64,000 nt of DNA from Candidatus Multivorans sp. (GCA_965224025.1 OZ245033.1:32001-96000); one strand, 5' to 3'. Positions 4,082 to 58,000 are shown, numbered from the stretch's first letter. Numbers and translations: made by a program. The notes: generated by a model from the sequence alone, not told the origin.

Positions 4082-4090
4082 TGCTAGAAT
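4082..4090 (+). promoter_or_regulatory. Putative extended -10 promoter element
   Basis: TGCTAGAAT (TGn-TAGAAT) about 70 nt upstream of ATG 4163. Confidence 0.45.
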
Positions 4091-4162
4091 CCGACGGCTT
4101 TCGCCTTGCCTTCCGTGCTGGGCGGGGTCTTGAACCATGTCCAGGCATCGTCTCTAATCGCC

Positions 4163-6655
4163 ATGTCTCTCCGCTCCGGGCTTACCGCGCTGCTCATCGC
4201 GGCCGCGCTGATCGCCGCGCCCGGGGAGGCGATCGTCTACGTCACGCCGACCGACGAGTCGTTGGTGGACCGGTCGCCGGTGATCGTCTTCGGCGAGATT
4301 CTGGCCGCGGAACCGGCGCCGGTCGACGGACTGCTGTCGACCGACTTCATGTTCCAGGTCGAAGACGTGCTGAAGGGGTTCGTCCCGGGCAGCATCATCG
4401 TCGTTCGCCAGCCGGGCGGCCGCAGGTCGGACGGGCTGGTCGGTTCGGTCATGGGCTTGCCGACTCTGGCCGAGGGCGACCGCGTGCTGCTCTTCCTCGA
4501 TCCGGCGAACGCCGTGTACCGGACGGTCGAGTTGTCCCTCGGCATGTTCTTCGAGGTGCCGGTGCGCGGCGGCACGGTGCTGCTGCGCGAGGCGTCGCTG
4601 CGCGAAGACATGTCCCCGCCCGGCAGCCCGGCGGCTCGGCGGCAGCCAAACCAGCCACGCGAGGCGGAGCGCTTCCGGCGCTGGATCGCCGACCGGGCCA
4701 GCGGCCTCGAGCGGGCGGCCGACTACTTCGCGCCTGAACTGGGCGAGAACCCGGCGGCCGTCGCCGAGGCGTTCCGGCTCACCGTGTCACCGGGCGAGTG
4801 CGACCGCGTGGGCGTGCCCGTCCGCTGGCGGGAGTTCGACCGCAACCGCGGCGTCGGTCTGGTGGTGCAGGCCGGAGGTCAGCCCGGTGTGCCGGGCGGC
4901 GGCATGGCCCAGGTACTTGCCGGTATGCGGGCCTGGAACGGCGATCCGCGGAGCCGCACGCGACTGATCAGCCTGGGCAGGTCGAACGAGGAGTTCTCGC
5001 TCAAGGTCGACGAGCAGAACTCGATCAGCTTCGAGGATCCGCACGACGAGATTGCGGGTTCCTTCAATCCGCGGCTCGGCGGCATTCTGGCCATCAACTG
5101 GGTGTTCTTCTACTGCGGCCAGGTGACCGAGCCGCACCGGATTCCGGGAGGCGGATCGCGGCAGGCTCTGCCGATCGTGGAGTCGAACATCACGACGCAG
5201 GACGGGTTCGAGGACTGGTTGGCCGCCAGTGCGGACCCCCGCCGCGACTTCGAGGAGATCATCGGCCACGAACTCGGCCACGCGCTGGGGATCAACCACG
5301 CCTGCGACCCGTCGGGGGGCTCGCCTTGCGATGAGGTGACGAACGAGGCCCTGATGCGCGCGAATGTCCACGGGGACGGGCGCGGCGCCGCGCTGAGCCG
5401 GGACGACCGGAACGCCGTGCGCGCCCTCTACCCGGAGATCGGCCCGGTGGGCCCGGTGGCGCCGGCGGCGGCGACCGACCTGACGGTCTCCGCGATCAGC
5501 CAGAACGAACTCGAACTCCGGTGGCGGGACCGCTCCGGCGACGAGACCGGCTTCGACATCTACGAGCGGATGGTCGACAGCGACTTCGAGCGCATCGCCA
5601 CCCTGGAGCGGAACAGCACTTCGGTCGTGATCCAGAACATCCCGCCCGCGACCTACCGCGCCTACCAGGTCGTGGCGCGGAACAACCGCGGCAGCTCCGA
5701 GCCGACACCGGAAGCGGGCGCCACGACTCTCGCTGGAGTGGCCGCCTGCGTGGAGGACGGCGACACGTTGTGTCTGAATGAGGGTCGCTTTCGGGTCGAA
5801 GTGCAATGGGAGACCGACAAGGAAAGCGACCGGGGCGATGCCGAGCCCTTGACCAACGACTCGGGCGATTTCTGGTTTTTCTCTCCGGACAACATCGAAC
5901 TCGTGGTCAAGGTCCTGGACGGGTGCGCCTTCAACGAACGCTTCTGGGTGTCCGCCGGCGGCTTGACCGACGTGAAGGTCATCATGACCGTGATCGACTC
6001 CGCGACCGGAGTCGCCGCGACGTACTACAACCCGCCGGGCACTCCCTTCCTGCCGGTTCAGGACAACGAGTCCTTCGCCGTCTGCTCCCAGGGACAGAAC
6101 CTGTACGGTCAAAGCCGGTACCTGCTGCCGGCTGGAGAGATGGAGTCCGTGCGCGGCGGCATGAACCGGGCGTCCCGGTTTGGTGAGCCGCTTACCGGAT
6201 CGCTCCGTCCCGGTTGGGCCGGGCTGCCCCAGGAAGAAGGCGGCGCCTGCGAGGTCGACGATCTCACGCTCTGCCTCGAAGGCGGCCGCTTCGCGGTCCA
6301 CGCGCGCTGGGAAACGGAAGACGGCCGCGGTGACGCCACGGCCTGGCCGCTCACCCGGGACACCGGCCTCTATTGGTTCTTCGGTCCGAACAACGTCGAG
6401 ATGGTGATCAAGGTGCTCGACGGGTGCGCGCTCAACGGCCACCGCTGGGTGTTCGCGGCTGGACTGACGGACGTGGCCGTGACGATGACGGTCATCGACA
6501 GTGAGACCGGCGAGAAGAGGGCCTACGAGAACCCCGCCGGCACCCTGTTCCAGCCGATCCAGGACGCGAAGGCGTTTTCCTGTTCGGCGCCGGCGCCGAC
6601 GGCTGCGGCAGGCGCTCGAGATCCTGGTCCGCATCCACGCGAAGCAGCGCGGTAG
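4163..6655 (+). CDS. Secreted zinc metalloprotease (matrixin/M10-like) with FN3 domain and two C-terminal WFF-KVLDGC domains
   Basis: Signal peptide; HELGHALGINH; Met-turn ALM; FN3-like LRWRDRSGDETGF; two CL..GRF.V..W...FWFF..KVLDGC repeats. Confidence 0.85.
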   Translation: MSLRSGLTALLIAAALIAAPGEAIVYVTPTDESLVDRSPVIVFGEILAAEPAPVDGLLSTDFMFQVEDVLKGFVPGSIIVVRQPGGRRSDGLVGSVMGLPTLAEGDRVLLFLDPANAVYRTVELSLGMFFEVPVRGGTVLLREASLREDMSPPGSPAARRQPNQPREAERFRRWIADRASGLERAADYFAPELGENPAAVAEAFRLTVSPGECDRVGVPVRWREFDRNRGVGLVVQAGGQPGVPGGGMAQVLAGMRAWNGDPRSRTRLISLGRSNEEFSLKVDEQNSISFEDPHDEIAGSFNPRLGGILAINWVFFYCGQVTEPHRIPGGGSRQALPIVESNITTQDGFEDWLAASADPRRDFEEIIGHELGHALGINHACDPSGGSPCDEVTNEALMRANVHGDGRGAALSRDDRNAVRALYPEIGPVGPVAPAAATDLTVSAISQNELELRWRDRSGDETGFDIYERMVDSDFERIATLERNSTSVVIQNIPPATYRAYQVVARNNRGSSEPTPEAGATTLAGVAACVEDGDTLCLNEGRFRVEVQWETDKESDRGDAEPLTNDSGDFWFFSPDNIELVVKVLDGCAFNERFWVSAGGLTDVKVIMTVIDSATGVAATYYNPPGTPFLPVQDNESFAVCSQGQNLYGQSRYLLPAGEMESVRGGMNRASRFGEPLTGSLRPGWAGLPQEEGGACEVDDLTLCLEGGRFAVHARWETEDGRGDATAWPLTRDTGLYWFFGPNNVEMVIKVLDGCALNGHRWVFAAGLTDVAVTMTVIDSETGEKRAYENPAGTLFQPIQDAKAFSCSAPAPTAAAGARDPGPHPREAAR

Positions 6656-6797
6656 CGGCAGCAGCGGAGGCCTTCCACGACGGCGCGGCCACCCTCAGGC
6701 GCTAGGATTGGGAGGCGCGATCCGGCGTACTGTCTGAAGGGGCGCCTGCCTGCCGCGTGAAATGTTTCTTTGTCAGTGACCAAGAGGAGGTTGGATG

Positions 6798-7991
6798 ATG
6801 TTTCGAATCTGGGTTTGTTTGTGTTCTGTGTTCCTCGCATTCTTGCTCGTTCCGGCGTCGGCGCCGCTCGCGGCCCAGGAAGGGCGCGACCTGCTGGTCC
6901 CGGAAAGGACCGGGAAGGCTCATTTGAGCTTCGTTGACCGCGTGGACGCTGAACCGGTCTTGGCGCGAGACCGCCGGGTGTCGTCGGTTGGCTACCCTGC
7001 AGTCCGCGTCGCGCAACCCGCGACGGAGGTCTACGAGTACGACGACGGCGATCTCGATGAAGGTGTGTACCTCGTCGACGATGAAACCGAGGAGGTGTCC
7101 TTCGGGTTCGAGTTCGCTCAGCAGTTTCGTCTACGGCGAGCCGGAACGGTGCAATACGCGGTTGTTTGCCTGGGGAGGGGACCCGACGACACGAGCAGCG
7201 ACGCGGCATTCTCGCTGCACTTCTACTCGGGCGCCGGAAGTGTGCCGGGAGCGCTGTTGGCCGAGTACGACGCGCCCGACGCGCGACTTGACGAGCCCGG
7301 AACCTACAATTGCTTCGAAGTCGGAGGCGACGTGGAGGGTCTGCGGCTGGCTGGCGCCCAGGTCTGGGTTTCCGTGTCGTGGCAGCGCGGATCGCCGCCG
7401 GAGAACACGAAGTTCATGATGATCGACGAGAATGGCCCGGGCGGCGGCAGGCGAGCCTTCCGTGGTCGTTCGGAGGAGGGTGGCGAGTGGGACGAGTGGC
7501 TGGCCGACACGGATCAGGACACGAAGGCCTACGGCATTCGACTGGCGGTAGACCATCTGGACGAACCGGACCCCGACCCGGATCCCCCCGACCCCGATCC
7601 CGATCCCGATCCGCCGCCGACCGATGAGGGCTACACCGACTGCGTGCCCGAGACGACGCCGCTCGTCTTCGGCGACTACAAGGTCAGCATGTGTTACGAG
7701 ACGCAAGAAGCGAAGATCGGCGAGGGCAAGGCGGGTATCTGGGCGTCGGAGGAATCGGGCCTGCTCTGGTTCTTCAGCCGGAGCAACGCGGAAGTCCTGA
7801 TCAAGGTGCTGAACGGTTGCTCCTACAACGGCCACCGCTGGGTGTTCGTGGCGCCGGTGACCGACCTCGCCTTCAACCTCTACGTGACGGACAGCGGAGA
7901 CAGCGGAGGCCGTAGGTGGTCCCATCGCAATCGGCTGGGCGATCCGGCCACAAACAGGGTCGATACGTCGGCGTTCCGGTGCCGCGAGTAG
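6798..7991 (+). CDS. Secreted protein with Asp-Pro linker and C-terminal WFF-KVLNGC domain
   Basis: GAGGAGG RBS, signal peptide, YEYDDG motif, DPDPDPPDPDPDPDPPP linker, SGLLWFFSRSNAEVLIKVLNGC. Confidence 0.8.
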   Translation: MFRIWVCLCSVFLAFLLVPASAPLAAQEGRDLLVPERTGKAHLSFVDRVDAEPVLARDRRVSSVGYPAVRVAQPATEVYEYDDGDLDEGVYLVDDETEEVSFGFEFAQQFRLRRAGTVQYAVVCLGRGPDDTSSDAAFSLHFYSGAGSVPGALLAEYDAPDARLDEPGTYNCFEVGGDVEGLRLAGAQVWVSVSWQRGSPPENTKFMMIDENGPGGGRRAFRGRSEEGGEWDEWLADTDQDTKAYGIRLAVDHLDEPDPDPDPPDPDPDPDPPPTDEGYTDCVPETTPLVFGDYKVSMCYETQEAKIGEGKAGIWASEESGLLWFFSRSNAEVLIKVLNGCSYNGHRWVFVAPVTDLAFNLYVTDSGDSGGRRWSHRNRLGDPATNRVDTSAFRCRE

Positions 7992-22734: not shown

Positions 22735-22795
22735 AGGGTGCGCCGACCTTCCGGCCGGCATCAGGCGCGCTGCCGCGTAGCGGCGAGCGCGGAAC
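22735..22795 (+). repeat. REP copy
   Basis: GGGTGCGCCGACCTTCCGGCCGGCATCAGGCGCGCTGCCGCGTAGCGGCG. Confidence 0.75.
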
Positions 22796-23032
22796 TCAGT
22801 AGTCGTCTCTCTTGAAGTCCCCAGGGTGGAAGGTCTGGATGCCTTCGAGCCGCTGGACGTACAACCCGTACGACTCGGCGCTCCCGTCCGGGTCGGGACG
22901 GGTCACGCAGTTGACCGCACCACGCGCGTCAAGGCGGCCCGCCCCCACCCCGCCGTCAAACGTCCTTGCCCGTTGCCCTCTCCCCGCCGCACCCGCTACG
23001 CTCCCCGCGCCCCGCCTGCCCCCAAGTCCCAC

Positions 23033-24211
23033 TTGGCCGGCCCGCGCAACATCGCACTCTGCTTCGACGGCACCTGGAACAGCGACGACCGGGCGTCGCC
23101 CACGAACGTCGTCAAGACGAGCCAGGCGCTCGCGCCGCGGACCGCGGCGGGCACGCCGCAGCTCCGCTACTACGACCGCGGCGTCGGTACCGGGCGCTTC
23201 GACCGCGTGCGGGGCGGGGTGGTGGGTCTCGGCCTCGCCCGCAACGTGGAACTGGCCTACGCCTGGCTGAGCTCCCACTATCGCCCCGGCGACCGGCTCT
23301 TCCTGTTCGGCTACAGCCGCGGGGCCTATACCGCGCGCAGCCTGGCCGGGCTGCTCGGCCTCTGCGGCGTCCCCGACCCGCAGCGCTGCGCCGCCGCCGG
23401 CCTCCGGGTGGCCGATGTCGCGCTGCGGGGCATGGCGATCTACCGGCTGCGGCCCGGCGCCGCGCGCAGCGAGCGCGCCGCCTGCCACGTCGAGACCTTC
23501 GCCGTGACCCGCGGCGCCGGCGGCCGCCGGCAGGGGCCGCCCGCCGCCGGGCCCCCGTGCACGGTCCACTTCATCGGCGTGTGGGACACCGTGGGCGCCC
23601 TCGGCGTGCCGGTCACCTGGTTGAACTGGATCGGCGCCCGCCGCCACCGCTTCCACGACGTGCGCCTAGACCGCCACATCCGGCACGCCTGCCACGCGGT
23701 GGCGATCGACGAGGCCCGCCGCCCCTTCGCCCCCACCCTGTGGACCAACCGGCCGGCGCCGGGCCAGAACGTCGAGCAGCTCTGGTTCCCGGGCGTTCAC
23801 AGCGATGTCGGCGGCGGGCGTCCGAACACCGGGCTCTCCGACCGCGCGCTGCTCTGGATCTGGGCAAGGGCCCACGCCGCCGGCCTCGCGCTGCGGCCCG
23901 ATGCCGCCCGCGCCGGCATGGCGCCCGACGAACTCGGCCCGCAGGGCGACTCGATGTCGCTGGTCTACCGGCTCTGGGGCCGTTACGACCGGCCGGTCGG
24001 CGAGCGCGGCGAGGACGGCCGGCCCCTGGCGACGGGCGAACGCGTCCACTTCTCCGCCATGCGGCGCCTGGAGGCCCGGGAAACCAGCGCCTACCGCGAG
24101 GGAACCGCCGGCCGCACCCTGCTTCCGGCCCTGGAGCGCGACCTGGTCCGCGCGGCGCCGCCGGCGCCGGGCGAGGAAAACCCCGAGGAAGTCTCTTGGG
24201 ACGGCCCCTAA
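23033..24211 (+). CDS. DUF2235 (Tle1-like alpha/beta hydrolase) protein
   Basis: CFDGTWN, GYSRGA, GVWDTV, WFPGVHSDVGGG; TTG start uncertain. Confidence 0.88.
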   Translation: MAGPRNIALCFDGTWNSDDRASPTNVVKTSQALAPRTAAGTPQLRYYDRGVGTGRFDRVRGGVVGLGLARNVELAYAWLSSHYRPGDRLFLFGYSRGAYTARSLAGLLGLCGVPDPQRCAAAGLRVADVALRGMAIYRLRPGAARSERAACHVETFAVTRGAGGRRQGPPAAGPPCTVHFIGVWDTVGALGVPVTWLNWIGARRHRFHDVRLDRHIRHACHAVAIDEARRPFAPTLWTNRPAPGQNVEQLWFPGVHSDVGGGRPNTGLSDRALLWIWARAHAAGLALRPDAARAGMAPDELGPQGDSMSLVYRLWGRYDRPVGERGEDGRPLATGERVHFSAMRRLEARETSAYREGTAGRTLLPALERDLVRAAPPAPGEENPEEVSWDGP

Positions 24212-24252
24212 CCCCAACCCCATCAACAATTTGACTTCCACACCCCTACCTC

Positions 24253-24281
24253 TTGACGAATCCCCTTGAAGGGCCTATAGT
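24253..24281 (+). promoter_or_regulatory. Sigma70 promoter of the paralogue trio
   Basis: TTGACG-17 bp-TATAGT; IHF-like CATCAACAATTTG just upstream (about 24221-24233). Confidence 0.75.
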
Positions 24282-24658
24282 GGCGGTGCTCGGAGGAACT
24301 TGATTCGGCAGGAGGCTGCATTCGATCCACCCGCGCCCCGACGCTTTGCGACATTCCGTGCAACGCTGGGCGCCACTGGATCTATTCGGTCGTTTCGGCT
24401 AAGGTTCCACCTACGTTTGGACAGACGGCCTTGAAGTCTTTTATCGGGAGGTGATGCGCAGCATCAGCGTAGGACGGTCGGCGGCTCGGTTCTGCCGGGG
24501 TCTGATCGTCCAGACAGAAACGTCAGCGGCCAGGGCAGCGCGGAACGTCCGCATCGCAGTGGCCTGATCTTCGGATCAAACGAAACTCCCGGTCCGGCAA
24601 ACGGCCGGTCCGGCAAATGAACGGCGGTTTGAAAGCCGCTCAAGGAGAAAACAAACTG

Positions 24659-25714
24659 ATGAAGCTGATGAAGCACATCACTATCGCGCTGGTGCTCAGC
24701 GTGATCCCGGCGATGGCCTTCGGTCAGGTCGGCGCAATCGATCCGGCCATGGTCGACGTCCTGTGTCCGGCGGACGAATGCCACACCGCCACCTACTTCC
24801 AGGGTTCGGGCGGCTTCGTGGGCATGGCCACGGCCGACAACCCGAAGACGATGGACACGGACGAGAGCGAAGTCGCGTTCATCGTGTCCTGCGGCAACGT
24901 GACCACCAGGGCGGTCGCCGCGAAGGACGCCATGGGCGTCGTCCGGCAGGTGTTCAGCGAGGAGAACGGTCTGGCCTGCGCGGCCGACGGCGAGATCAAC
25001 ATTCATCGCCTGATGCCCGGAGGCTGGTACTGGATCAACGACGACATGAACTCGGCGGTGGCCAGCCTGATGCCGAAGACGGTTCTGAACAACGCCAAGA
25101 CCACTCCGATCGATCCGGGCGGCTTGGTGTTCAACACGGGCGACAGCGAGAGGGCGACCTACGTCAAGCACGAGATGACCGGCCGGGTCGGCATCCTCCA
25201 GCACATCCAGCCGGTTGAGCCGAAGAGGCCCTGCGGTGGCGAGCTCAACAGAGACAACGACTGTGTCCTGGATGCTACGTACCACATCACGATGATGGTC
25301 GGCGCCAAGCCAGTCGGCGCCAGTGTCGAACGGGGCGCGGCCGACATCGTAGTCACTCTCGGCCTCGGTGGCAGCGGTTTCATCGACAACACCGCTAGCG
25401 GCACCGATCCGGGTGCGACCTGGATGATCGGCGGACCGGGCGGAGTCAGCATGCCGGGCGTGATCGCCAATGCGGGTGACGGGATGTTTACGATCACTGC
25501 CTCGACCGACGCTCGTTGTGCGGCCACCAACGCGGACCGGGCGTCGCCCGTCATGGTCAAGGTCGATGCCGCGGATTCGACGGGCGTAGTTCCTGGCTTC
25601 GGCGCCATGGGGGGCCCAAGCAGGACAATCGGTGTCACCTGCCCCAAGGCGTCGGCGGCGGCGAACCAGGGCCTGGAGCTCGTGCCGGACAACCCGTTCC
25701 CGGTCAGCCAGTAA
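24659..25714 (+). CDS. Secreted hypothetical protein, 8-Cys family paralogue 1
   Basis: AAGGAG RBS, signal peptide, GGWYWINDD and YVKHEMTGRVGI shared with the two downstream genes. Confidence 0.85.
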   Translation: MKLMKHITIALVLSVIPAMAFGQVGAIDPAMVDVLCPADECHTATYFQGSGGFVGMATADNPKTMDTDESEVAFIVSCGNVTTRAVAAKDAMGVVRQVFSEENGLACAADGEINIHRLMPGGWYWINDDMNSAVASLMPKTVLNNAKTTPIDPGGLVFNTGDSERATYVKHEMTGRVGILQHIQPVEPKRPCGGELNRDNDCVLDATYHITMMVGAKPVGASVERGAADIVVTLGLGGSGFIDNTASGTDPGATWMIGGPGGVSMPGVIANAGDGMFTITASTDARCAATNADRASPVMVKVDAADSTGVVPGFGAMGGPSRTIGVTCPKASAAANQGLELVPDNPFPVSQ

Positions 25715-26003
25715 GGGAACATACGAGAGGTGTCTTGTGGCCTGAGGGTCTTGAAGAAGCCTCCCAGGACATAGAGAACCACTCTTGAGCGGCGCTTCCG
25801 CGTCGGGCCCTTGCCCGGCGCGGAGGTTGCCGCTCCTTTCGTTGGGGCGGGGGTCTTGCGCCGCCGGGCTGGAGGAAACGTGTGCGGAAGCTGCTCCAGA
25901 CTGGATCTTGTGGCCGGCTTCTTCTAGGGTTGTGCCTTGTGGACTTGGCCGCGGCCGTTGGATCCCGCGTGCGACCGGAGGAGTTGAGAGGAAGTTCGAA
26001 GCG

Positions 26004-27011
26004 ATGAAACGCTTGATCCTTGCCTTGGCGGTCGTTCCGCCGGCCTCGGTCGTATCTGGCCAGACCGGTACGGCGGACGCGGCGGAGGTCCGGGTCACCT
26101 GTTCGGCTCCGTGCTATGTGGCGCCTTTCTTCGCGGGACGGGGTGGTTTCGTGGCGGAGGCCGTGAGAGGAGGCCCGTTCGGTCCCGTAGACTTCGCGCT
26201 CACCTGCGGCTCGACGGTGACCACGGGCACCGTCGAGCCGGACGAGGACCGCATCGTCCGCCAGGTGTTCACCCGCGCCAACGGCCTGGCTTGCGACGCG
26301 GAGAGCGGCAAGATCGAGATCTCTGGACTCAAGGCTGGCGGCTGGTACTGGATCAACGACGACCGAAACTCGGCGGTGTCTTCCCTTGTCAACGGCAATG
26401 TACTGGGCGAAGGCCACGTGAGGGTTCGGCCCCTCGCTCCGGGCGGCGTCACGATCACATCTATGGAGGGCGGCGACGCGAGCTTCGTCAAGCACGAGAT
26501 GAGCGGCCGCGTGGGGATCATCTCCCACATCTTGCCGGTGCCGGAAATGCCGCCCTGCGCCGATCAGGAGAACCTGAGGAACAACTGCGAGCTTCGCGGG
26601 TCCTACGAGATCGTTCTGAAGTCGGGCGATGCCGTTGTCGGTTCGGACGTCGTGCGCGGCGGCGACGACGGCGAGACGTACTTCATCGTTACCGCCTCGC
26701 TTGCCGGGAGCGGCTACATCCCTATCGACCCGGCGACGCCTCCGGTCGCCGCCTACCGGATCGCCGGCCCGGGCGGTACGGAGGAGAATCCGGTCGGCAC
26801 GCCCGGCGTGAACCATGCCTTTCCGTCGGCGGATATCGGCATTGAGGCGAAGGCTGGTTCGGGGGAACGGTGCGGTGAGACGAGTTCGCTCCGGGACGTT
26901 CCGGTCACGGTGGTCATTGCGGCGATCAATCCGGAGGCCGGGCTCGGCGCGGTGCCGCGGCTGCCGGAGGAAGGGATCAGGAGGACCGTCACCGTCTCCT
27001 GCCCCGAATAG
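26004..27011 (+). CDS. Secreted hypothetical protein, 8-Cys family paralogue 2
   Basis: MKRLILALAV signal, GGWYWINDD, FVKHEMSGRVGI, ends VSCPE. Confidence 0.82.
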   Translation: MKRLILALAVVPPASVVSGQTGTADAAEVRVTCSAPCYVAPFFAGRGGFVAEAVRGGPFGPVDFALTCGSTVTTGTVEPDEDRIVRQVFTRANGLACDAESGKIEISGLKAGGWYWINDDRNSAVSSLVNGNVLGEGHVRVRPLAPGGVTITSMEGGDASFVKHEMSGRVGIISHILPVPEMPPCADQENLRNNCELRGSYEIVLKSGDAVVGSDVVRGGDDGETYFIVTASLAGSGYIPIDPATPPVAAYRIAGPGGTEENPVGTPGVNHAFPSADIGIEAKAGSGERCGETSSLRDVPVTVVIAAINPEAGLGAVPRLPEEGIRRTVTVSCPE

Positions 27012-27097
27012 GCATGACCCGGAGTCTGGCGCTTGTCGGGCCCTCGTGGCCTGGTCGCAGCCGGGTCCCGGGTCGGGCGGCGGCCGCGAACGGGGCG

Positions 27098-28120
27098 GTG
27101 ACGCGGTTGAAGTTCATCTTCGCCTATCTCCTGGCCGGCGCGGTTCCCGCACTGGCGTTGGGCCAGAGCGTCAACATCGTGTGCTCTGCCGAGAGCTGCC
27201 ACTTCGCGCCCTACTTCCGGGGTGAAGGCGGCTTCGTTGGCGAGCGGGCGCCGACCCACGTGGACGACCGAGGCGCGCCGCTGCCGATCCGATTCGTGCT
27301 GGAATGTGGGCGCGTGACGGTGTCCGGCGAGGTCGAGCCGGACGCGGACGGAATCATCCGGCAGCTACTGACCGGGCGAGAAGGTCTGGCCTGTTGGGGG
27401 GACGGCGGCACCTTCGAGCTTCGAGGTCTCCGCGACGGGGGTTGGTACTGGATCAACGACAGGAGGAACTCCGCGGTCTCTCCCCTGGTCAGGCTGGGCG
27501 CCCGCGCCAATCCGGAGACGAAGCCGTTCGATCCCGGCGGCGTGACGATGACGACGATCCGTAGGGGCGCCGCGACCTACGTGAAGCACGAGCCGACCGG
27601 CCGGGTCGGCATCATCCCGAACATCCTGCCCGTGGCGGCGACCCCGGACTGCAGCGGTGAGGCGCCCAACGGTGAAGCTTGCCTCCTGGGGTCGCCGGAG
27701 GATTGGTCTCTCGTACTGACCACGGGCGATGGCGACGCGCCCGTCGGCGCCGGGGCGATCGAGCGCGGGGCCGACGTGTCGGTCAAGGTCAGCCTCGTGG
27801 GACGGAACTTCGTCAGGACGGGGACCGTGGCGACCGACATCTCTCTCTCCGGCGGCACGCGCGGCGAGACGATCCTGAGCGCCCCGGCCGAAGTGACGAT
27901 CTCGGGCACGCCGCCGGACGCCGCCGAGGGCGGCGAGCTGGCGTGGACGATCCTGGTGGCCGACGACCCGGACCTCTGCGCCGCGACGCACCCGGACCGG
28001 CTGCTCGAGCAGACCGTCGTGGTTACCGCTTCCGCCGCGCTGGCGGGCGCGGTCCCGGCCTACGCCGCCGGTGAGGGTCCATCGGCCAGCTTCACGATCA
28101 ATTGCCCGGATTCGGGGTAG
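27098..28120 (+). CDS. Secreted hypothetical protein, 8-Cys family paralogue 3
   Basis: Signal peptide, GGWYWINDR, YVKHEPTGRVGI, ends INCPDSG; start uncertain (27014 is an alternative). Confidence 0.82.
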   Translation: MTRLKFIFAYLLAGAVPALALGQSVNIVCSAESCHFAPYFRGEGGFVGERAPTHVDDRGAPLPIRFVLECGRVTVSGEVEPDADGIIRQLLTGREGLACWGDGGTFELRGLRDGGWYWINDRRNSAVSPLVRLGARANPETKPFDPGGVTMTTIRRGAATYVKHEPTGRVGIIPNILPVAATPDCSGEAPNGEACLLGSPEDWSLVLTTGDGDAPVGAGAIERGADVSVKVSLVGRNFVRTGTVATDISLSGGTRGETILSAPAEVTISGTPPDAAEGGELAWTILVADDPDLCAATHPDRLLEQTVVVTASAALAGAVPAYAAGEGPSASFTINCPDSG

Positions 28121-28194
28121 CCGGTAGCCGCATCCTCGGTGCGAGCTCACCAGTAGACGCCACGCCGTGGGAAAGACAGCTCCCGCACGCCGCT

Positions 28195-28252
28195 TCCCGG
28201 CGGCGCGGCGGACGCGGGCCGGAAGGCCCGCGCAACGGCCGGCGCGCCCGGT
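28195..28252 (-). repeat. REP copy
   Basis: GCGGGCCGGAAGGCCCGCGCAACGGCCGGCGC, close to the reverse complement of 3977-4008. Confidence 0.75.
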
Positions 28253-28565
28253 CTCTTCGACGGCCCCAGAATCGATGAAAACAAACGGCTTCCAGAAGCG
28301 ATATAAGAACTGGGACGGTTTTCCGTCTTAGTCTATGGAAGCGCTACTTCCATGCAGACCTGCAGGTCACAGAACGCCGGTTTGGCTTCTCCGGGGTTCA
28401 CCGAACGGCCGCGGCGAGTGGGCGGGCGCTTCGGGGGGGTCGGCCTGCTCCGGAGAAAAGGGGCACCTCCAAGGGCCGGCGCCCCCATCTCCCCGATCGG
28501 GGATAATCGGCTCTTGACTACCCACGCAAGACTCGGCGAGCGTCGCACGGTGGTGGAGATCCGCC

Positions 28566-29363
28566 GTGGTTGATTCCGCATTGGACCGTCGCCGCTTCTC
28601 GCAGTCCATGTTCCTGCTGCGGGAGCTGGTGGCGCGGAACCTGCGGTCGCGTTACGCGGGCTCGCTGCTGGGTCTCGCGTGGTCGCTGCTCAACCCGCTG
28701 TGGCAACTCCTGCTGTTCACGTTCGTCTTTTCTCTCCTGCTCCGCGTTCCGCTCGAAGGCGAGCAGACGCAGAACTTCGGCGTCTTCCTGTTCTGCGGCC
28801 TGCTGCCCTGGATCGCGGTCCACGAGGGACTGAGCCGCTCGGCATCGGCAGTCACGGACAACGCCGACCTGGTCAAGAAGATGCTCCTGCCGGTCGAACT
28901 CCTGGTGGCGTCCCTGGTGATCGGCGCGCTGCTCCACGCCGGCGTCGGCGCGCTGGCGTTCATCGTCGTCCTGGCCGTGATGGGCGAACTCTCCGTCGCC
29001 AGCCTTCCTCTTCTGATGGTCGCGGCGCCCCTGCAGGCGGCGCTGACGTTCGGCCTGGGAGTGGGTTTGGCGGGGGCCAACGTCTATTTCCGGGATGTTG
29101 CACAGGCCGCGGGCCTGATCCTGAACACCTGGTTCTACGTGACGCCGATCATCTACCCGGTGAACTTCATCCAGAAGGAGACCCTCCGGCAGGTGCTGGA
29201 ACTCAACCCACTGACGGGCCTGGTCTACCTCTACCGAGCCGCGTTCCTGGGCGGAGGGATTCAGGTCAGCCTGGTCCCGCTGCTCGCCTGCGCCGCCGCC
29301 TCCGTGGTCCTGGGCGGGGCGCTGTTTGCCCGGTTGAAGGACGGTCTCGCGGACGAAATATGA
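28566..29363 (+). CDS. ABC-2 type polysaccharide export permease (Wzm-like)
   Basis: RYAGSLLGLAWSLLNPL, YFRDV, WFYVTPIIYP, LNPL. Confidence 0.9.
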   Translation: MVDSALDRRRFSQSMFLLRELVARNLRSRYAGSLLGLAWSLLNPLWQLLLFTFVFSLLLRVPLEGEQTQNFGVFLFCGLLPWIAVHEGLSRSASAVTDNADLVKKMLLPVELLVASLVIGALLHAGVGALAFIVVLAVMGELSVASLPLLMVAAPLQAALTFGLGVGLAGANVYFRDVAQAAGLILNTWFYVTPIIYPVNFIQKETLRQVLELNPLTGLVYLYRAAFLGGGIQVSLVPLLACAAASVVLGGALFARLKDGLADEI

Positions 29364-30409
29364 AGCCGTGCTTCGGCATCACGGCGGTTATCGTCCACTA
29401 CCGCACACCGGACCTCCTCGAGGCCGCGGTGGATGCCCTCAAGGCGAACGCGCGGGCTTCGGGGTTGGCGCTCCAGGTCATTGTCGTGGACAACGGCGCG
29501 GACTCGGCCAAGGGGAATCATCTCGACTTGGCGCGTCTGAAGACGTGGGTCCTCGAGCCGTCCTCGAATCTGGGCTACGCGGGCGGGATCAATCTCGGCG
29601 CCCGCAAGCCGGCAGGCGATGTCGTGCTGCTGATGAACGCGGATGTCGTTGTGGAACCGGGGTGCCTGCGGGCGCTCGTCGATGCGCTCGGCGAGGCCGA
29701 CATCGCCGGGCCGCGGTTGTTCTGGGATCGGGACTGCCGGCTGATGCTGCCGCCGCAGCAGGTCCGCACGCGCGCCGCCGAGCTGGACGCGCTCTGTGCC
29801 GAGCGGTCGGTGGTCTGGGGGCGTTCCTACCGCCGCCGGTGGCGGCGCCGCGCCCGTGCTCTCTGGTCGGCTCGGGAACCCGTGCCCTGCTTCGAGCTGA
29901 CGGGCGCCTGCCTGGCCATGACAAGGGACTGCTGGCACCGGGTTGGACCGTTCGACGAAGGCTACCGGCTCTACTTCGAGGAGACCGACTGGCTGCTTCG
30001 CGCGCGGGCGCTGGGCGCGCGGGCGGTCCTGGTTCCGGCCGCGCGCGCGGTTCACGCCTACGACCAGAGCGGGAAGCTTGAACCTCGCGCGCAGATGTGG
30101 TTCGAGCAGTCGATGGCGCGCTTCCGCCGGCGCCGTTACGGCGCCTGGTTCGCGGCGCTGCTCCGGTTCCTCGAACGCGTGCCTCGGCGCTTCGCCGATC
30201 CGCCGCCGCTTCCCGCCGGGCCGGTGGACGGCGAGGCGTGGGTCGAGGTCACGCCGCTGCCGCTGGGCGTTCCCGCCGCCGGTTGCCGCCTCGACGGTGG
30301 CGGTGTGCGGGATTTCGAGTTGCCGCCGGATGTCGCGCAGGGCGCCGGGTCCGACCTGCGGATTCGCGTCAGCGACGGCGCCCGCCGGGATCTCGGCGGG
30401 CCGAAGTAG
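29360..30409 (+). CDS. Glycosyltransferase family 2
   Basis: VVDNG, NLGYAGGIN, LMNAD, FDEGYRLYFEETD; ATGA coupling. Confidence 0.9.
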   Translation: MKPCFGITAVIVHYRTPDLLEAAVDALKANARASGLALQVIVVDNGADSAKGNHLDLARLKTWVLEPSSNLGYAGGINLGARKPAGDVVLLMNADVVVEPGCLRALVDALGEADIAGPRLFWDRDCRLMLPPQQVRTRAAELDALCAERSVVWGRSYRRRWRRRARALWSAREPVPCFELTGACLAMTRDCWHRVGPFDEGYRLYFEETDWLLRARALGARAVLVPAARAVHAYDQSGKLEPRAQMWFEQSMARFRRRRYGAWFAALLRFLERVPRRFADPPPLPAGPVDGEAWVEVTPLPLGVPAAGCRLDGGGVRDFELPPDVAQGAGSDLRIRVSDGARRDLGGPK

Positions 30410-53289: not shown

Positions 53290-55260
53290 CTAGGCCGAAG
53301 TTCTGAGGCTCCTGGGGCCTCCTCGTCGTCGAGAGGCGTTGCAGTGCTTGGGTTTTCGGGTGTTGGGCCGCCCCTGTTTTCTGCCATTGGTAGCCATGTA
53401 ATGATCTCGTGGCATGTAGATATTCTGAATGGTTTCGTCTACAATGAGAAGCCATGTACATCGAACGGGTACCCAACCGAAACTCACCACCAGCCGTCCT
53501 GCTGAGAGAGTCCTACCGACAGGACGGAAAGGTCAAGAAACGCACTCTCGCCAACCTCTCCAAGTGGCCCGACCAACTCGTCGAAGGACTCAGAACCCTG
53601 CTCAAGGGAGGAGTCGCCCTGCCTTCGCTCGAGGCAGCCTTCGAGATCCTGCGCGCCAGACCGCACGGCCACGTCGCCGCCGTCCTCGGCGCGGCCCGAA
53701 GCCTCGGCCTCGAACGGCTCCTCGATCGACGGCCCTCGCGGGCGCTGGCGCTGGCCATGATCGCGGCCCGCATCCTCGAGCCGCGATCCAAGCTCGCCAC
53801 CGCCCGCGGACTCGCAAGCGAGACCATGAGCCACACCCTCGGCGAGGAACTCGGCGTGCAGGAGGCCTCGGCCGACGAACTCTACGGCGCCATGGACTGG
53901 CTGCTCGAAAGACAGCCGCGCATCGAGCGGACTCTTGCCCGGCGGCATCTGGAAGACGGCTCGCTGGTGCTCTGCGACGTGACCTCGGTCTACTTTGAGG
54001 GCAGGAAGTGCACGCTGGCCAGGCACGGCTACTCCAGGGACAAGAAGAGAGGCAAGGTCCAGATCGTCTTCGGCCTGCTCTGCAGCCGGGACGGATGCCC
54101 GGTCGCGGTCGAGGTATTCGAGGGCAACACGGCCGATCCGACGACCCTGAACGCCCAGGTGCAGAAGCTCCGCGACCGCTTCTCGCTGGAGAGGATCGTG
54201 ATGGTCTCAGACCGGGGCCTGATCACCGACGCGCGCATCCGCGAGGACCTCGACCCCGCGGGCCTGTCCTGGATCAGCGCCCTGCGCGCGCCGGCGATCA
54301 GGACGCTGGCCCAGGAAGGCCACCTGCAACTGTCGCTCTTCGACCAGCGGAAGATGGCCGAGATCAGGGTCCCGGAGCTGTACCCGAAGGAGCGCCTCGT
54401 GGTGTGCCGGAACCCGCTTCTGGCGGAGGAACGCGGCCGCAAGCGCCAGGAGCTTCTCGAAGCCACCGAGCGCAAGCTCGACGCCGTCGTTGCGGCGACG
54501 CGGCGCAAGAAGAACCCCCTGCGCGGCAAGGACGCCATCGCCGTGCGCGCGGACCGCGCCCGGGGCGCCTACAAGGTCGGCAAGCACTTCGAGGTCGAGA
54601 TCGAAGAGGACGGCTTCCAATACCGCCGCAACGAGGCGCGCATCGCCGAGGAAGCCGCTCTCGACGGCTTCTACGTCATCCGCACCAACGTCCCCGAAAA
54701 CGAACTGCCGGCAGCCGATGCGGTCCGCGCCTACAAGAGCCTCAGCCGCGTCGAACGCGCCTTCCGCTCCTTCAAGAGCGTCGACCTCAAGGTGCGCCCC
54801 GTCCACCATCGCCTGGCCTCGAGGGTGCGCGCCCACGTCTTCCTCTGCATGCTCGCTTACTACGTCGAGTGGCACATGCGCCGGACCCTGGCGCCCATCC
54901 TCTTCGACGACCAACGCCGCGACGACCAACGCGAGTCGCCAGTCGATCCCGCGCGCAGGTCGCCCGAGGCGATGGCCAAGGCCAACTCCCGGAGCACCCC
55001 CGACGGACTCCCCGTCCACAGCTTCCAGACCTTGCTCGCCGACCTGGCCACGCTGACCCGAAACCGGGTGCGGATGCACGGCGACGCCGACTCCACAGCC
55101 GACGTCCTCGCACGGCCCACTCCACTCCAGAACGAAGCCTTCAAACTACTCGGCATCCGCCCCTGAAGCCGACGTACCCAGTACAAGACACCGCCGAACA
55201 ACTGAAAACGCCCACCACTACAGGCGATTTCACGACTTGAAGCTCAGAACTTCGGGCTAG
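53290..55260 (+). mobile_element. IS1634-family insertion sequence
   Basis: Left end CTAGGCCGAAGTTCTGAG and right end reverse complement CTAGCCCGAAGTTCTGAG (17/18 match); CTAG at both ends. Confidence 0.9.
53454..55166 (+). CDS. IS1634 family DDE transposase
   Basis: MYIERVPNRNSPPAVLLRES, DVTSVYFEG, GYSRD, GNTAD, SDRG, VERAFR, RVRAHV. Confidence 0.93.
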   Translation: MYIERVPNRNSPPAVLLRESYRQDGKVKKRTLANLSKWPDQLVEGLRTLLKGGVALPSLEAAFEILRARPHGHVAAVLGAARSLGLERLLDRRPSRALALAMIAARILEPRSKLATARGLASETMSHTLGEELGVQEASADELYGAMDWLLERQPRIERTLARRHLEDGSLVLCDVTSVYFEGRKCTLARHGYSRDKKRGKVQIVFGLLCSRDGCPVAVEVFEGNTADPTTLNAQVQKLRDRFSLERIVMVSDRGLITDARIREDLDPAGLSWISALRAPAIRTLAQEGHLQLSLFDQRKMAEIRVPELYPKERLVVCRNPLLAEERGRKRQELLEATERKLDAVVAATRRKKNPLRGKDAIAVRADRARGAYKVGKHFEVEIEEDGFQYRRNEARIAEEAALDGFYVIRTNVPENELPAADAVRAYKSLSRVERAFRSFKSVDLKVRPVHHRLASRVRAHVFLCMLAYYVEWHMRRTLAPILFDDQRRDDQRESPVDPARRSPEAMAKANSRSTPDGLPVHSFQTLLADLATLTRNRVRMHGDADSTADVLARPTPLQNEAFKLLGIRP

Positions 55261-55321
55261 AGTGTACGGATCCCATACACGGGAGTATTCGGACAGGAGA
55301 GGAACAGGAAGCTCACGCTCC

Positions 55322-58000
55322 ATGTCTAGGATTCCAGTCACTGTGCTCCCTGGAGGCAGTGTCAAGCGGACGAAGTTGTTCGTCGTTGCGCTGGTGCTGC
55401 TCGCGGCGCCGGCCGCATCTTTGACCTACGCTCCGGTGACGGACGCCGAACTGGTGGACGGCGCCGCGGCGATCGTCTTCGGCGAGGTGGTTTCGGTGCG
55501 TGAGACTCCGCGCTACCGTTACCTGACGGTCGCCGTCGATGGCGTGCTCAAGGGCGGCGCGGGAGCCACGGTGACGGTCGAGCAGGTCGGCGGTACGGAG
55601 TGGATCGTGCCCGGAGCGCCGCAGGCCGTGCTTGGCGACCGCGGCATCTGGTTCCTCGACGCCGACGGCCGCGCCGACCCCGCGCTCGGATGGATGCAGC
55701 GGGTAGGTGCGCGCTACGTCTCGACCGACGGGGAGGCCCGTGAGGCGGGGCGATTCCGGGCGTGGGTCGAGGACCGCCGCGCCGGGCGCCGGCGACCGGC
55801 GGACTACGAAGCCGTCGGTCCGGTCGCGGTCGTGCAGCCATACAAGTTGTACGACCGCCGATGCGGTGGCGGGCGGGTCTTGCGGTGGCGGACGTTCCCC
55901 ACATGGTCGGCCAACAGCATGGAACTGTCCGGCACGGACGGTTCGGTCGGCTGGTCCGATCTTGTGGCGTCGGCGGCGCGTTGGGAGGCGGCCTCGGCGG
56001 CGTCGCTGCCGTTGTCGCGCACGGAGGAGCGAGTGACGGGCGTCCTGAGAGTCTCTCTCAACGCCGCCGGCCTTGGCCTCGGCTACACCGATCCGCCGAC
56101 GGTGACGTTCTCGGAGCCTCCCGAGGGTGGGCGGAGAGCGGCGGGCACCGCGGTCCTGGGCCAGCGGCGGATGGTCGGACAGGGGAGTACCGACCTTGAA
56201 TTGGGCACCGTGAGCCGCGTCGACGTTTCCGACTCCGGCGACTACGGCCTTCTCGGCAACCCTCGGGTGACGTTCAGCGCGCCCGTCGACAAGGGCTCGC
56301 TCTCCCGGCTCAAGTGGAGCCACGGCAGCGGCTACGTGGAAGCCCCTGCGGTCACGGTCTCGGACGCGCCGGCCGGCGGCACGACGGCGCGCCTGCAAGC
56401 GCTGATCCTCAACGGCGAGGTGGTTGAGATCGTGCCGAACGACCGCGGCGCCGGCTACACGTCCGCTCCCACGGTCTCGATCGCGGCGCCGCCGGCGGGT
56501 GGAACGCAGGCGGAAGTCCTCGCGGTGGAAACGGCCCTTCGCACCGCTGCCGCCCCGGTGGACGGGGAACCAGACTTCGATGCGCTGCCGACTCCGACGC
56601 ACATCAGCGATACGGGGATCGGCGTTCGTCCCCTTAGGTTCGGGATCACTCTCGGCCGAGCCTGGCTGTTCTGCGGCACCTCCTATGACGCCGCGAACCT
56701 GGGGCCGGCAACGGAACCGTCCCGCGCCTATGTCACCGTGGTCCGCAACTTCCTTGACAACTACCCGCCTGACGACTGGCGGCAGGTGATGACCCATGAG
56801 TTGGGTCACGCGCTGGGCCTGCACCATTCGTCGGATCGGGAAGCGATCATGTGGTCGGCCAATATCAGTGGTCGCGGCTACCACCTGAACGACGACGACA
56901 TCGCCGGGATCCGGGCGCTCTACGGCGTCGAGAGCCCGGATCCGCCACCACCTCCGCCTCCTCCACCTCCGCCGCCACCTCCTCCGCCTCCTCCACCTCC
57001 TCCGCCTCCTCCGCCTCCTCCGCCTCCGCCTCCGCCACCTCCACCTCCACCTCCACCTCCGCCGCCACCGGAGCCGGAGCCCGAGCCGCCGCCACTGGTG
57101 GCGAGTCTGGCCGTGCCTTCGTCCCTGGAGACGGGATTGGCGGTGATGTTCGACGGCAGCGGTTCCGTGGGCGCCGAGAGCTACAGTTGGGACTTCGGCG
57201 ACGGCACGGCGATCGCTCATCCGAGCACGGAGTCCATGCCGTCGCACACCTACGTTGAGCCGGGTTCGTACGAGGTCCGTTTGGAAGTGGGGGCCGCGGG
57301 CGACTGCGGCGAGGAGTTGTGCCGGCACGATTCGGTGACGGCATCGGTCGAAGTGGGAGCGGGCGCCCTGCCGGCGGCGCGGTTCGACCTGGATGCCGAA
57401 TGCCGCGACGATTTGTGCAGCGTGCGGACCGGCGTCGAAGTCGCGCTACGCGACATGAGCAGCGGCACGGTGGCCACGACAAGCTGGGACTTCGGCGACG
57501 GGACCGTGTCGAGCGAGCGGGACCCGACGCACTCCTGGTCGTCGCCGGGCTTCTACAGGGTGGCGCTCGGCGCTTCCGGTCTGGGCGCCACGTCCACTGT
57601 GAGCCGGGACATCCTGGTCCTGGCCAGCGACCCGGCCGGTACGTGCGAGCCGGACCGCGGGACGCTGTGTTTGCGGGATTCACGGTACATGATCCGTGTG
57701 ACGTGGTGGACCGATGACGGAAGAAGCGGCGCGGGGAGCGTGGCGTACGCGGGAACGAACGACTCCGGCCTGTTCTGGTTCTTCGACAGGCAAAACTGGG
57801 AGGTGCTGGTCAAGGTGCTGGACGGCTGCGCGCTGAACGGCCGCATGTGGGTGTTCGGCGCGTCGACTACGGACCTGGGCTACTTGATCCACGTCACCGA
57901 TACCGTGACGGGCACGTTCAAGGAGTACCGCAACGAGCCGGGCCGGCCGGCGGCGGCGATCACGGATCCGACCGCGTTCCCCGGCGGCTGCGGGCGCTGA
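55322..58000 (+). CDS. Secreted matrixin-like metalloprotease with GxGY repeats, poly-Pro linker, two PKD domains and C-terminal WFF-KVLDGC domain
   Basis: HELGHALGLHH, AIM Met-turn, WDFGDG twice, SGLFWFFDRQNWEVLVKVLDGC; start uncertain. Confidence 0.85.
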   Translation: MSRIPVTVLPGGSVKRTKLFVVALVLLAAPAASLTYAPVTDAELVDGAAAIVFGEVVSVRETPRYRYLTVAVDGVLKGGAGATVTVEQVGGTEWIVPGAPQAVLGDRGIWFLDADGRADPALGWMQRVGARYVSTDGEAREAGRFRAWVEDRRAGRRRPADYEAVGPVAVVQPYKLYDRRCGGGRVLRWRTFPTWSANSMELSGTDGSVGWSDLVASAARWEAASAASLPLSRTEERVTGVLRVSLNAAGLGLGYTDPPTVTFSEPPEGGRRAAGTAVLGQRRMVGQGSTDLELGTVSRVDVSDSGDYGLLGNPRVTFSAPVDKGSLSRLKWSHGSGYVEAPAVTVSDAPAGGTTARLQALILNGEVVEIVPNDRGAGYTSAPTVSIAAPPAGGTQAEVLAVETALRTAAAPVDGEPDFDALPTPTHISDTGIGVRPLRFGITLGRAWLFCGTSYDAANLGPATEPSRAYVTVVRNFLDNYPPDDWRQVMTHELGHALGLHHSSDREAIMWSANISGRGYHLNDDDIAGIRALYGVESPDPPPPPPPPPPPPPPPPPPPPPPPPPPPPPPPPPPPPPPPPPPPEPEPEPPPLVASLAVPSSLETGLAVMFDGSGSVGAESYSWDFGDGTAIAHPSTESMPSHTYVEPGSYEVRLEVGAAGDCGEELCRHDSVTASVEVGAGALPAARFDLDAECRDDLCSVRTGVEVALRDMSSGTVATTSWDFGDGTVSSERDPTHSWSSPGFYRVALGASGLGATSTVSRDILVLASDPAGTCEPDRGTLCLRDSRYMIRVTWWTDDGRSGAGSVAYAGTNDSGLFWFFDRQNWEVLVKVLDGCALNGRMWVFGASTTDLGYLIHVTDTVTGTFKEYRNEPGRPAAAITDPTAFPGGCGR
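56942..57070 (+). repeat. 43-codon polyproline tract
   Basis: Uninterrupted CCG/CCA/CCT codons. Confidence 0.95.

Follow-up and report, generated by a model that had tools for sequence, protein, structure and literature searches.

A tandem trio of secreted eight-cysteine paralogues in Candidatus Multivorans: an undescribed family with a candidate dimeric envelope or surface protein

Introduction

The described systems that come closest to the locus reported here are the surface layers (S-layers), of which SLH and CWB2 are shared anchor domains, the donor-strand pili, and the cohesin-dockerin and other modular assembly or sorting domains. The locus consists of three tandem genes (genes 1–3, together the trio) for secreted proteins with eight conserved cysteines. 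It lies in a window of 64,000 nucleotides (nt), the whole stretch that was analysed, from Candidatus Multivorans sp. (GCA_965224025.1, OZ245033.1:32001-96000), and positions are counted from the first nucleotide of this window. Each protein carries a signal peptide, a conserved N-terminal module and a more variable C-terminal domain (C-domain), to which gene 1 adds a short C-terminal tail.

According to the review PMC3666127, S-layer genes are expressed at a high level and have both silent copies and an expression site. The trio is similar to S-layer systems in joining a conserved association or anchoring part, common to other envelope exoproteins, with a variable part, in its multiple paralogues within one genome, in its strong signals for expression and in a terminator of its own. 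It differs in the absence of SLH, CWB2 or any other Pfam domain, in its eight cysteines and small size, in a presumably diderm host, and in a module that is predicted to dimerise, whereas a lattice and binding to an envelope polymer are hypothetical. With the donor-strand pili (chaperone-usher pili and the type V pili of Bacteroidota) it shares tandem secreted beta-rich subunits, one of them highly expressed as judged from sequence signals, and a terminal extension on some of them. However, neither an usher nor a PapD-like chaperone is found at the trio locus, the lipoprotein cysteine at position +1 of type V pilins (FimA/Mfa) is missing, and the tail is proline-rich and placed in no interface.

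Cohesin-dockerin pairs, the C-terminal domain of the type IX secretion system (T9SS) and PEP-CTERM are comparable in that one conserved module is found on the ends of many unrelated secreted enzymes of a single lineage; in contrast to them, the module of the trio has no sequence or fold match and is predicted to pair with itself rather than with a distinct receptor. Several known sorting signals were tried and rejected. The Por secretion-tail model of T9SS cargo was unmatched in Pfam and NCBIfam at E ≤ 1. PEP-CTERM and VPDSG-CTERM were dismissed because the 2–4 residues left after the tail motif offer no room for a transmembrane helix or a basic cluster, and NCBIfam was unmatched at E ≤ 1. Finally, a sortase/LPXTG signal is at odds with a protein that ends 2–4 residues past the motif and with the lack of a sortase among the scanned neighbours.

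Below, the trio is tentatively read, at a confidence a little short of even, as a Sec-exported, disulfide-stabilised family in which gene 1 encodes an abundant dimeric envelope or surface protein, either a coat or an adhesin, and genes 2 and 3 encode minor forms.

An undescribed family of secreted eight-cysteine proteins

The three genes follow each other on the + strand (Table 1), their listed start codons being the most plausible choices, in a window with a G+C content of about 65–75%. The preliminary description had seen here three tandem signal-peptide paralogues with eight conserved cysteines. Open reading frames (ORFs) of this kind are indeed present, and in alignment A1 the identity with the gene 1 protein is 42% for gene 2 and 40% for gene 3, with eight cysteines invariant in the trio (C36, C41, C78, C107, C192, C202, C287 and C328 in gene-1 numbering). 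The family profile matched genes 1, 2 and 3 at E = 6e-123, 3e-94 and 1e-112, respectively, which places their kinship far beyond chance. The motifs quoted in that description (GGFV, GLAC, GGWYWIND..NSAV, VKHE..GRVGI and a final CP) were each found again in the trio, and so was the 22-residue tail KASAAANQGLELVPDNPFPVSQ after CP, present in gene 1 only; gene 2 stops at CPE and gene 3 at CPDSG. By eye, all three proteins have a predicted Sec signal peptide with a basic N-terminus, a hydrophobic stretch and an A/G-x-G|Q site, the predicted cleavage preceding a nearly invariant glutamine (...AFG|QVG, ...VSG|QTG and ...ALG|QSV in genes 1, 2 and 3).

That the family was unrecognised, as had been claimed from the sequence, held up in every search, and no enzyme family was matched. 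Pfam and NCBIfam scans of the three proteins gave zero matches at E ≤ 1, a profile of 88 homologues found nothing among Protein Data Bank (PDB) sequences (best E = 0.72), and the ESM Atlas returned no usable match. There were 304 homologues at E ≤ 1e-3, all named "hypothetical protein" by their sources, and a profile search of 1.84 billion representative proteins yielded 256 clusters only. The pattern GGWYW[IV][NHT]D, searched in species-representative genomes, gave 115 matched stretches, 84 of them encoding relatives, at 54 loci. Every one of the 54 loci belongs to a metagenome-assembled genome (MAG) of Acidobacteriota, labelled Candidatus Multivorans or Multivoraceae, Thermoanaerobaculia, Holophagales and, in one case, Vicinamibacteraceae. 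Judged by these searches, the family is undescribed and so far seen only in Acidobacteriota MAGs. No literature on the family or on the genus Candidatus Multivorans was found, which is not proof that the family is undescribed.

The closest relative, locus L001, aligns at 83% to window positions 22940-28151. It shares the CPDSG ending of its gene 3 orthologue with that of locus L013, and it carries a fourth, tail-bearing paralogue (L001:13511-14694) between gene 3 and the gene for an ABC-2 membrane protein, where the window has only about 130 nt (28151-28280). A different situation was seen on the chromosome OZ220482.1, to which four of the loci (L034, L035, L044 and L045) belong. At least 10 long-form members of 580–600 residues are encoded there on both strands, with the variant tail ELLPDNAWSP(F/S)RR, some of them adjoining short ORFs that are repeated; the group resembles a local expansion.

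The N-terminal module and its predicted homodimer

The AlphaFold2 model of gene 1, built on an 88-row alignment, is all-beta (predicted local distance difference test, pLDDT, 87; predicted template modelling score, pTM, 0.63), and residues 24–206 modelled alone formed one compact domain (pLDDT 88, pTM 0.80). The Foldseek comparison proposed in the preliminary description returned, for the whole model against the PDB, only generic tandem Ig-like matches at E from 9e-5 to 2e-3. The best of them were nectins, contactins, the S-layer proteins SbsB and Sap and a PKD protein. The trio is like such tandem Ig-like surface proteins in being all-beta with an Ig-like C-terminal part; it is unlike them in the low template modelling (TM) scores of ≤ 0.21, in identities of 5–12%, and in an N-terminal module which, searched alone, remained unmatched at E ≤ 1e-3, the best values being 0.029 in the PDB and 5.4e-3 among the viral structures of BFVD. 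According to these models, what the three proteins have in common at the N-terminus is one new module of about 150 residues, and an Ig-like domain that varies more comes after it. In the trio this second domain is divergent and terminates in Cys-Pro. The mean frequency of the commonest residue (alignment A2) peaks in the second half of the module (0.64) and in ten residues of the tail (0.71), compared to 0.43 in the C-domain. A c-type cytochrome haem motif at CPADECH was considered and rejected; its histidine is not conserved, gene 2 having C-S-A-P-C-Y and many homologues Q or T.

Two copies of the mature gene 1 protein were folded together, with the family's own alignment supplied and three controls. 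The interface score (interaction prediction score from aligned errors, ipSAE) was 0.74 (0.74, 0.72 and 0.75 in the individual runs), and the best of the 3 controls reached 0.00. The ipSAE mark used is reached by 20 of 30 proteins solved as one-chain pairs, compared with 1 of 23 single-chain structures; these counts apply only approximately here, since an alignment of our own was supplied. At least 96% of the contacts agreed between runs, with a partner pLDDT of at least 85. The predicted interface comprises residues 54–56, 94–96, 119–153 (GGWYWINDDMNSAV) and 169–206 (VKHEMTGRVGI...) and a few residues of the C-domain; the contact lists are the same in both copies, hence a two-fold axis. Residues invariant in the trio make up 28 of 60 interface positions vs 54 of 246 elsewhere in the mature protein, an odds ratio of 3.1; this enrichment cannot count as independent of the folding alignment. 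Overall, the modelling supports a symmetric two-fold homodimer of the module formed by the GGWYWIND..NSAV and VKHE..GRVGI segments. A multimer model had been proposed earlier as a check of whether the tail completes a neighbouring subunit; in the model of the gene 1 homodimer, the one oligomer folded, the contact is instead between N-terminal modules and not head-to-tail. Since the module is predicted to pair with itself, the trio proteins probably act as homodimers, and because the interface residues are common to genes 1–3, mixed dimers within the trio are plausible as well.

Module pairs in other secreted proteins

The module is not confined to stand-alone family members. Two copies were present in 34 of 130 newly fetched representatives, adjacent to each other in 30 of the 34; the adjacent pairs were located at the extreme C-terminus in 24 cases and near the N-terminus in 6. 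The partner parts included S8 subtilase with P-domain, M10 and M12B peptidases, LRR, cadherin, FN3, Calx-beta, CARDB, Spondin_N, FGE-sulfatase and the LTD-EEP nuclease. The tandem module was 74–87% identical between most of the listed proteins with different passenger parts, and several tandem-module proteins share chromosomes with family members. In one representative (P0129), a single chain contains two full family units. A single copy predicted to be dimeric and a tandem duplication elsewhere are what would be expected of a self-pairing unit, and the adjacent pairs may accordingly form an intrachain pseudo-dimer, as we infer from their arrangement. The domain arrangements thus hint at self-pairing as a separate line of evidence beside the dimer model.

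The proteins with module pairs are among the entries P0202–P0250 of our set. In addition, at L012:7304-10945 (P0132) a full family unit is fused behind an LTD-EEP nuclease-FN3 protein.

The expression cassette of gene 1

The region upstream of gene 1 is more conserved than the proteins encoded behind it. About 280 nt upstream of the ATG are near-identical in 31 loci, while the downstream proteins fall into three deep subfamilies that are only about 35–45% identical. In the alignment of these 31 sequences (A3), the promoter-like site (Table 1) is marked by CACTGGATCT, conserved at 90% or more, and by a second hexamer whose T, A and final T are invariant, its middle positions being variable; TAAGGT would thereby behave as a -10 element. 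A consensus promoter and terminator scanner reported neither the proposed -10 site nor the hairpin described below.

The transcribed part of this region appears to be a structured leader. Its nhmmer profile found 33 copies, each directly upstream of a family gene and none elsewhere in the fetched DNA; the copy in the window (24398-24654) had E = 1.7e-71. RNAalifold proposed 64 pairs, and 97% of the alignment cells can pair, compared to 23–49% with slid partners. Pairs changed on both sides numbered 12 (2–7 with slid partners), and the cells with such changes 44 vs 15.1 ± 3.8 in shuffles, the covarying helices being 4, 5, 7 and 10. No Rfam family came near its gathering score (best E 7.6; freshwater-2 at 17.1 bits with a cut-off of 49.9, P13 at 16.8 bits with a cut-off of 70). 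Two long-range helices are predicted, CAUCAGC 24462-24468 with GCUGAUG 24664-24670 and CGUCAG 24521-24526 with CUGAUG 24656-24661, the latter including the start codon. The start-codon region carries the repeat CUGAUG-AAG-CUGAUG, complementary to both leader segments, so that in the folded model the leader may mask the start codon. A small upstream ORF within the leader was rejected, as A3 contains indels that are not multiples of three and break the frame.

The leader ends in a Shine-Dalgarno (SD) sequence, AAGGAGA, 10 nt 5' of the ATG. The claim that only gene 1 has a strong ribosome-binding site was borne out in part: the estimated SD duplex energies are -8.3 kcal/mol for gene 1, -6.6 kcal/mol for gene 2 and -10.6 kcal/mol for gene 3, the last for a G-rich, non-canonical match. 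An association of SD strength with tail status was also considered and discarded as weak (83% vs 51% at ≤ -8 kcal/mol, p = 0.02, the data not being independent). Downstream, about 70 nt after the gene 1 stop, lies a terminator-like hairpin. Hairpins of -35 to -56 kcal/mol were found within 200 nt past the stop in all 30 leader-bearing first genes examined, most of them with the common sequence GGCGCCUCCGCG..CGCGGAGGUUGCC followed by a U-rich run.

The dedicated promoter, leader, SD sequence and terminator together suggest that gene 1 is highly expressed and largely monocistronic, and genes 2 and 3 less so. The earlier view of gene 1 as the major product fits these signals, namely a conserved promoter and leader, a consensus SD sequence and a strong terminator-like hairpin. 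As a separate observation, the signal peptide MKLMKHITIALVL(S/C).IPAMAFGQ (24659-24727) and, likewise, the in-frame upstream GENKL of the SD region vary less than the mature proteins do in about 30 loci of the three deep subfamilies.

The C-terminal tail

A non-conserved tail had been named as something that would refute the preliminary description; the tail proved to be conserved. Among 88 aligned homologues, 70 carry the strict motif, [LIVA][VILAD]PxNx[FV]P, and among 112 locus members 61 do; a looser pattern that includes the LLPDNAWSP-type variants fits 71 of the 112. In all 61 strict matches it stops 2–4 residues from the C-terminus. The tail DNA exists in 38 distinct versions with synonymous variation at every codon; by this measure, the tail is selected at the protein level. 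It was, moreover, lost repeatedly: at least 14 state changes were counted on the family tree, and 20 by parsimony, on a quick LG+G4 tree in which several long branches are flagged. Some losses are visible frameshifts or premature stops, partly in recent duplicates. A tail-bearing gene followed by a tail-less one is a recurrent order; loci with only tail-bearing genes (L007, L026) and lone tail-less genes occur too, and the canonical tail is missing from 3 of 29 complete first genes that have the leader.

In the monomer model the tail falls from pLDDT 66 to 50 and is not folded back on itself, and in the dimer model it is among none of the confidently placed contacts, which leaves room for touching by residues that the tool does not name. 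The tail motif was found on no other identifiable family in about 1.1 Mb of fetched DNA, a sample biased to family neighbourhoods. Outside the profile matches it occurred in two terminal ORFs only, one at L002, where the C-terminus of a family member is cut by the record end, and one at L021, whose ORF is unconfirmed as a member. A general sorting signal on other families was rejected, since in the fetched DNA the motif is essentially confined to family members. The tail is best read as a short motif, carried on a flexible Ala/Ser linker, that docks a hypothetical partner.

Gene neighbourhood

The trio is preceded by genes for an S9 peptidase, an SCP2 protein and a Tle1-like hydrolase. It is followed by the ABC-2 membrane (Wzm-type) and GT2 genes (Table 1) and, farther on, a weak GNAT-like ORF, a macro-domain protein and a phosphoglycerate mutase. 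The overlap of the ABC-2 stop and the GT2 start suggests coupled translation; no ABC ATPase (Wzt) gene adjoins this pair. Of the same-strand Wzm, GT2 and GNAT genes noted previously as compatible with surface glycosylation, the first two stood and the third is weak (Acetyltransf_9, E = 9.2e-4, 19.7 bits at a cut-off of 25). At about 16–18 of the 54 loci, the genes follow one another as S9 peptidase, SCP2, Tle1-like, family cluster, ABC-2, GT2, GNAT-like, macro and mutase. This recurrent order probably represents the same chromosomal region in related genomes and so does not establish a functional link to glycosylation, which is putative and suggested only by this gene order. At other loci the family members stand among different genes, for example integrases, a sensor kinase and M10-like genes. 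A Pfam scan of 12 neighbours in the window and 17 conserved neighbour clusters of related loci detected no usher, PapD-like chaperone, sortase or secretion gene.

Table 1. Positions of the features discussed, numbered from the first nucleotide of the window
Feature	Position	Strand	Remarks
Promoter-like site	24377..24405	+	TGGATC 24377-24382, 17-nt spacer, TAAGGT 24400-24405
Structured 5' leader	24398..24658	+	RNA of ~250 nt if the start is near 24412; ends in SD sequence AAGGAGA 24642-24648
Gene 1	24659-25714	+	ATG 24659; 351 aa
Protein of gene 1			Signal peptide aa 1-22; all-beta module aa ~36-190; C-domain aa ~191-329; linker and tail aa 330-351
Module of gene 1	24764..25228	+	aa 36-190; GGWYWINDDMNSAV and VKHEMTGRVGI motifs; predicted dimer interface
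Linker and tail peptide	25646..25711	+	KASAAANQG-LELVPDNPFPV-SQ; family-wide conservation
Terminator-like hairpin	25787..25843	+	Stem 25787-25835, ~22 bp, then CUUUCGUU
Gene 2	26004-27011	+	ATG 26004; 335 aa; tail-less paralogue; C-terminus CPE
Gene 3	27098-28120	+	GTG 27098, alternative TTG 27107; 340 aa; tail-less; C-terminus CPDSG
ABC-2 membrane (Wzm-type) gene	28566-29363	+	Pfam scan
GT2 gene	29360-30409	+	Start ATG overlaps the ABC-2 stop (ATGA, 29360-29363)

Some further observations concern the surroundings. The Tle1-like ORF (22826-24211) matched the catalytic domain of a type VI secretion system (T6SS) phospholipase at E = 5.4e-70 and is kept at its position in 13 loci; no T6SS genes were seen near it. 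Between SCP2 and the Tle1-like gene, a stretch of 56 nt (22736-22791) has five matches of 86–88% identity in L001 and may be a small dispersed repeat. Elsewhere in the window, the ORFs 4088-6655, 6780-7991 and 55241-58000 were grouped by BLAST into a 33-member cluster. Its representative matches matrixin (M10) weakly (E = 2.2e-5), and genes of this cluster often flank family members in other loci, such as L009, L017, L023, L025 and L052.

Interpretation and alternatives

If gene 1 is indeed the abundant product, the other two genes would be expressed at a lower level, by read-through or from their own weak signals. The module would provide dimerisation and perhaps attachment to the envelope, the variable C-domain would be exposed, and the ELVPxNPFP peptide on its Ala/Ser linker would dock a hypothetical partner. 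The role as a major envelope or surface coat or adhesin is what we infer from these features, and by analogy an S-layer-like role of the trio is possible. Several points weigh against this reading. No secretion or anchoring machinery adjoins the genes among the scanned neighbours of the window and of related loci, and the proteins may reside in the periplasm, on the outer surface or in the medium. The expression level is deduced from sequence signals only and the dimer is a prediction. Both long-range helices of the leader are invariant, and covariation therefore cannot support them. At about 33 kDa, the mature protein would be a small coat protein. Finally, S-layer proteins are described in the review PMC3666127 as low in sulphur amino acids, and the trio has eight cysteines.

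A broader, and doubtful, proposal treats the family as a lineage-specific surface-display system. The module would be an envelope-attachment or assembly unit, single in the dimerising coat protein and paired, as a built-in pseudo-dimer, in dozens of exoproteases, nucleases and adhesin-like proteins. A single conserved expression cassette would house the coat gene, made of promoter, start-gating leader RNA, fixed signal peptide, fixed docking peptide and fixed terminator, in which the protein body is exchanged among the three deep subfamilies. Such exchange would lead to surface variation. A related thought, rather unlikely in our view, is that the module and the tail, singly or together, act as a tag for sorting or attachment by a hypothetical outer-membrane export or anchoring route, with the trio as its most abundant cargo; in its logic such a tag would be comparable to the T9SS C-terminal domain or to the SLH and CWB2 anchors. 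The concentration of adjacent pairs at the very C-terminal end of secreted proteins that otherwise have no relation (24 of 30), the 74–87% identity of the tandem module across most of the listed proteins with different passengers and a tail that is a short terminal motif under protein-level selection would all suit a tag. Yet in the trio the module is N-terminal, right behind the signal peptide, and 6 of the 30 pairs are N-terminal too; no candidate machinery is conserved beside the genes, the sorting-domain models of NCBIfam are unmatched, and the tail is restricted to family members in the ~1.1 Mb and absent from the listed tandem-module proteins of more than 430 residues.

The same fusions can be read differently, with the module as a ligand binder of the lectin or carbohydrate-binding module (CBM) type that targets enzymes to a substrate or host glycan, and the trio as soluble secreted or periplasmic binders. 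The appended pairs on many secreted enzymes and adhesin-like proteins, the aromatic-rich conserved motif GGWYW and the polysaccharide-related genes adjoining the cluster agree with this, but the model buries GGWYW in the dimer interface, none of the 34 scanned fusion proteins contains a glycoside hydrolase, and no lectin or CBM fold was matched at E ≤ 1e-3; we regard it as improbable. The least supported reading, and a very unlikely one, is the donor-strand fibre of the preliminary description, with gene 1 as the major subunit donating its tail as a strand to the next subunit and genes 2 and 3 as tail-less caps. Major pilin genes often have strong expression signals and their own terminator, as gene 1 does, the tail is conserved at the very C-terminus, and the tail-bearing then tail-less order is recurrent. 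Nevertheless, LVPxNPFP, with three prolines per six residues, should make a poor beta strand, the low pLDDT does not favour a folded tail, and the only supported oligomer is the symmetric module dimer, in which unnamed residues may still touch. The tail is thus probably not a donor strand. The idea of capping subunits fared no better, given the repeated change of tail state (at least 14 times, partly by frameshifts or early stops in recent duplicates), the leader-bearing first genes without a canonical tail (3 of 29) and the many loci with only tail-bearing genes. Nor did the scanned neighbourhoods contain usher, chaperone or sortase genes.

If the interpretation of the trio as an exported dimeric envelope or surface family is true, it would add a new domain without a match in Pfam, NCBIfam, the PDB or viral folds, together with a conserved structured leader RNA and a C-terminal peptide motif that are likewise new. 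Both module and cassette might then be usable as display and expression parts. Furthermore, the module would organise much of the secreted proteome in a poorly known, uncultured lineage of Acidobacteriota, and gene 1 would be a concrete candidate for its major envelope protein, by which the cell-surface biology of these organisms, from the dimer and a lattice or fibre to the anchoring ligand and regulation, would become testable.

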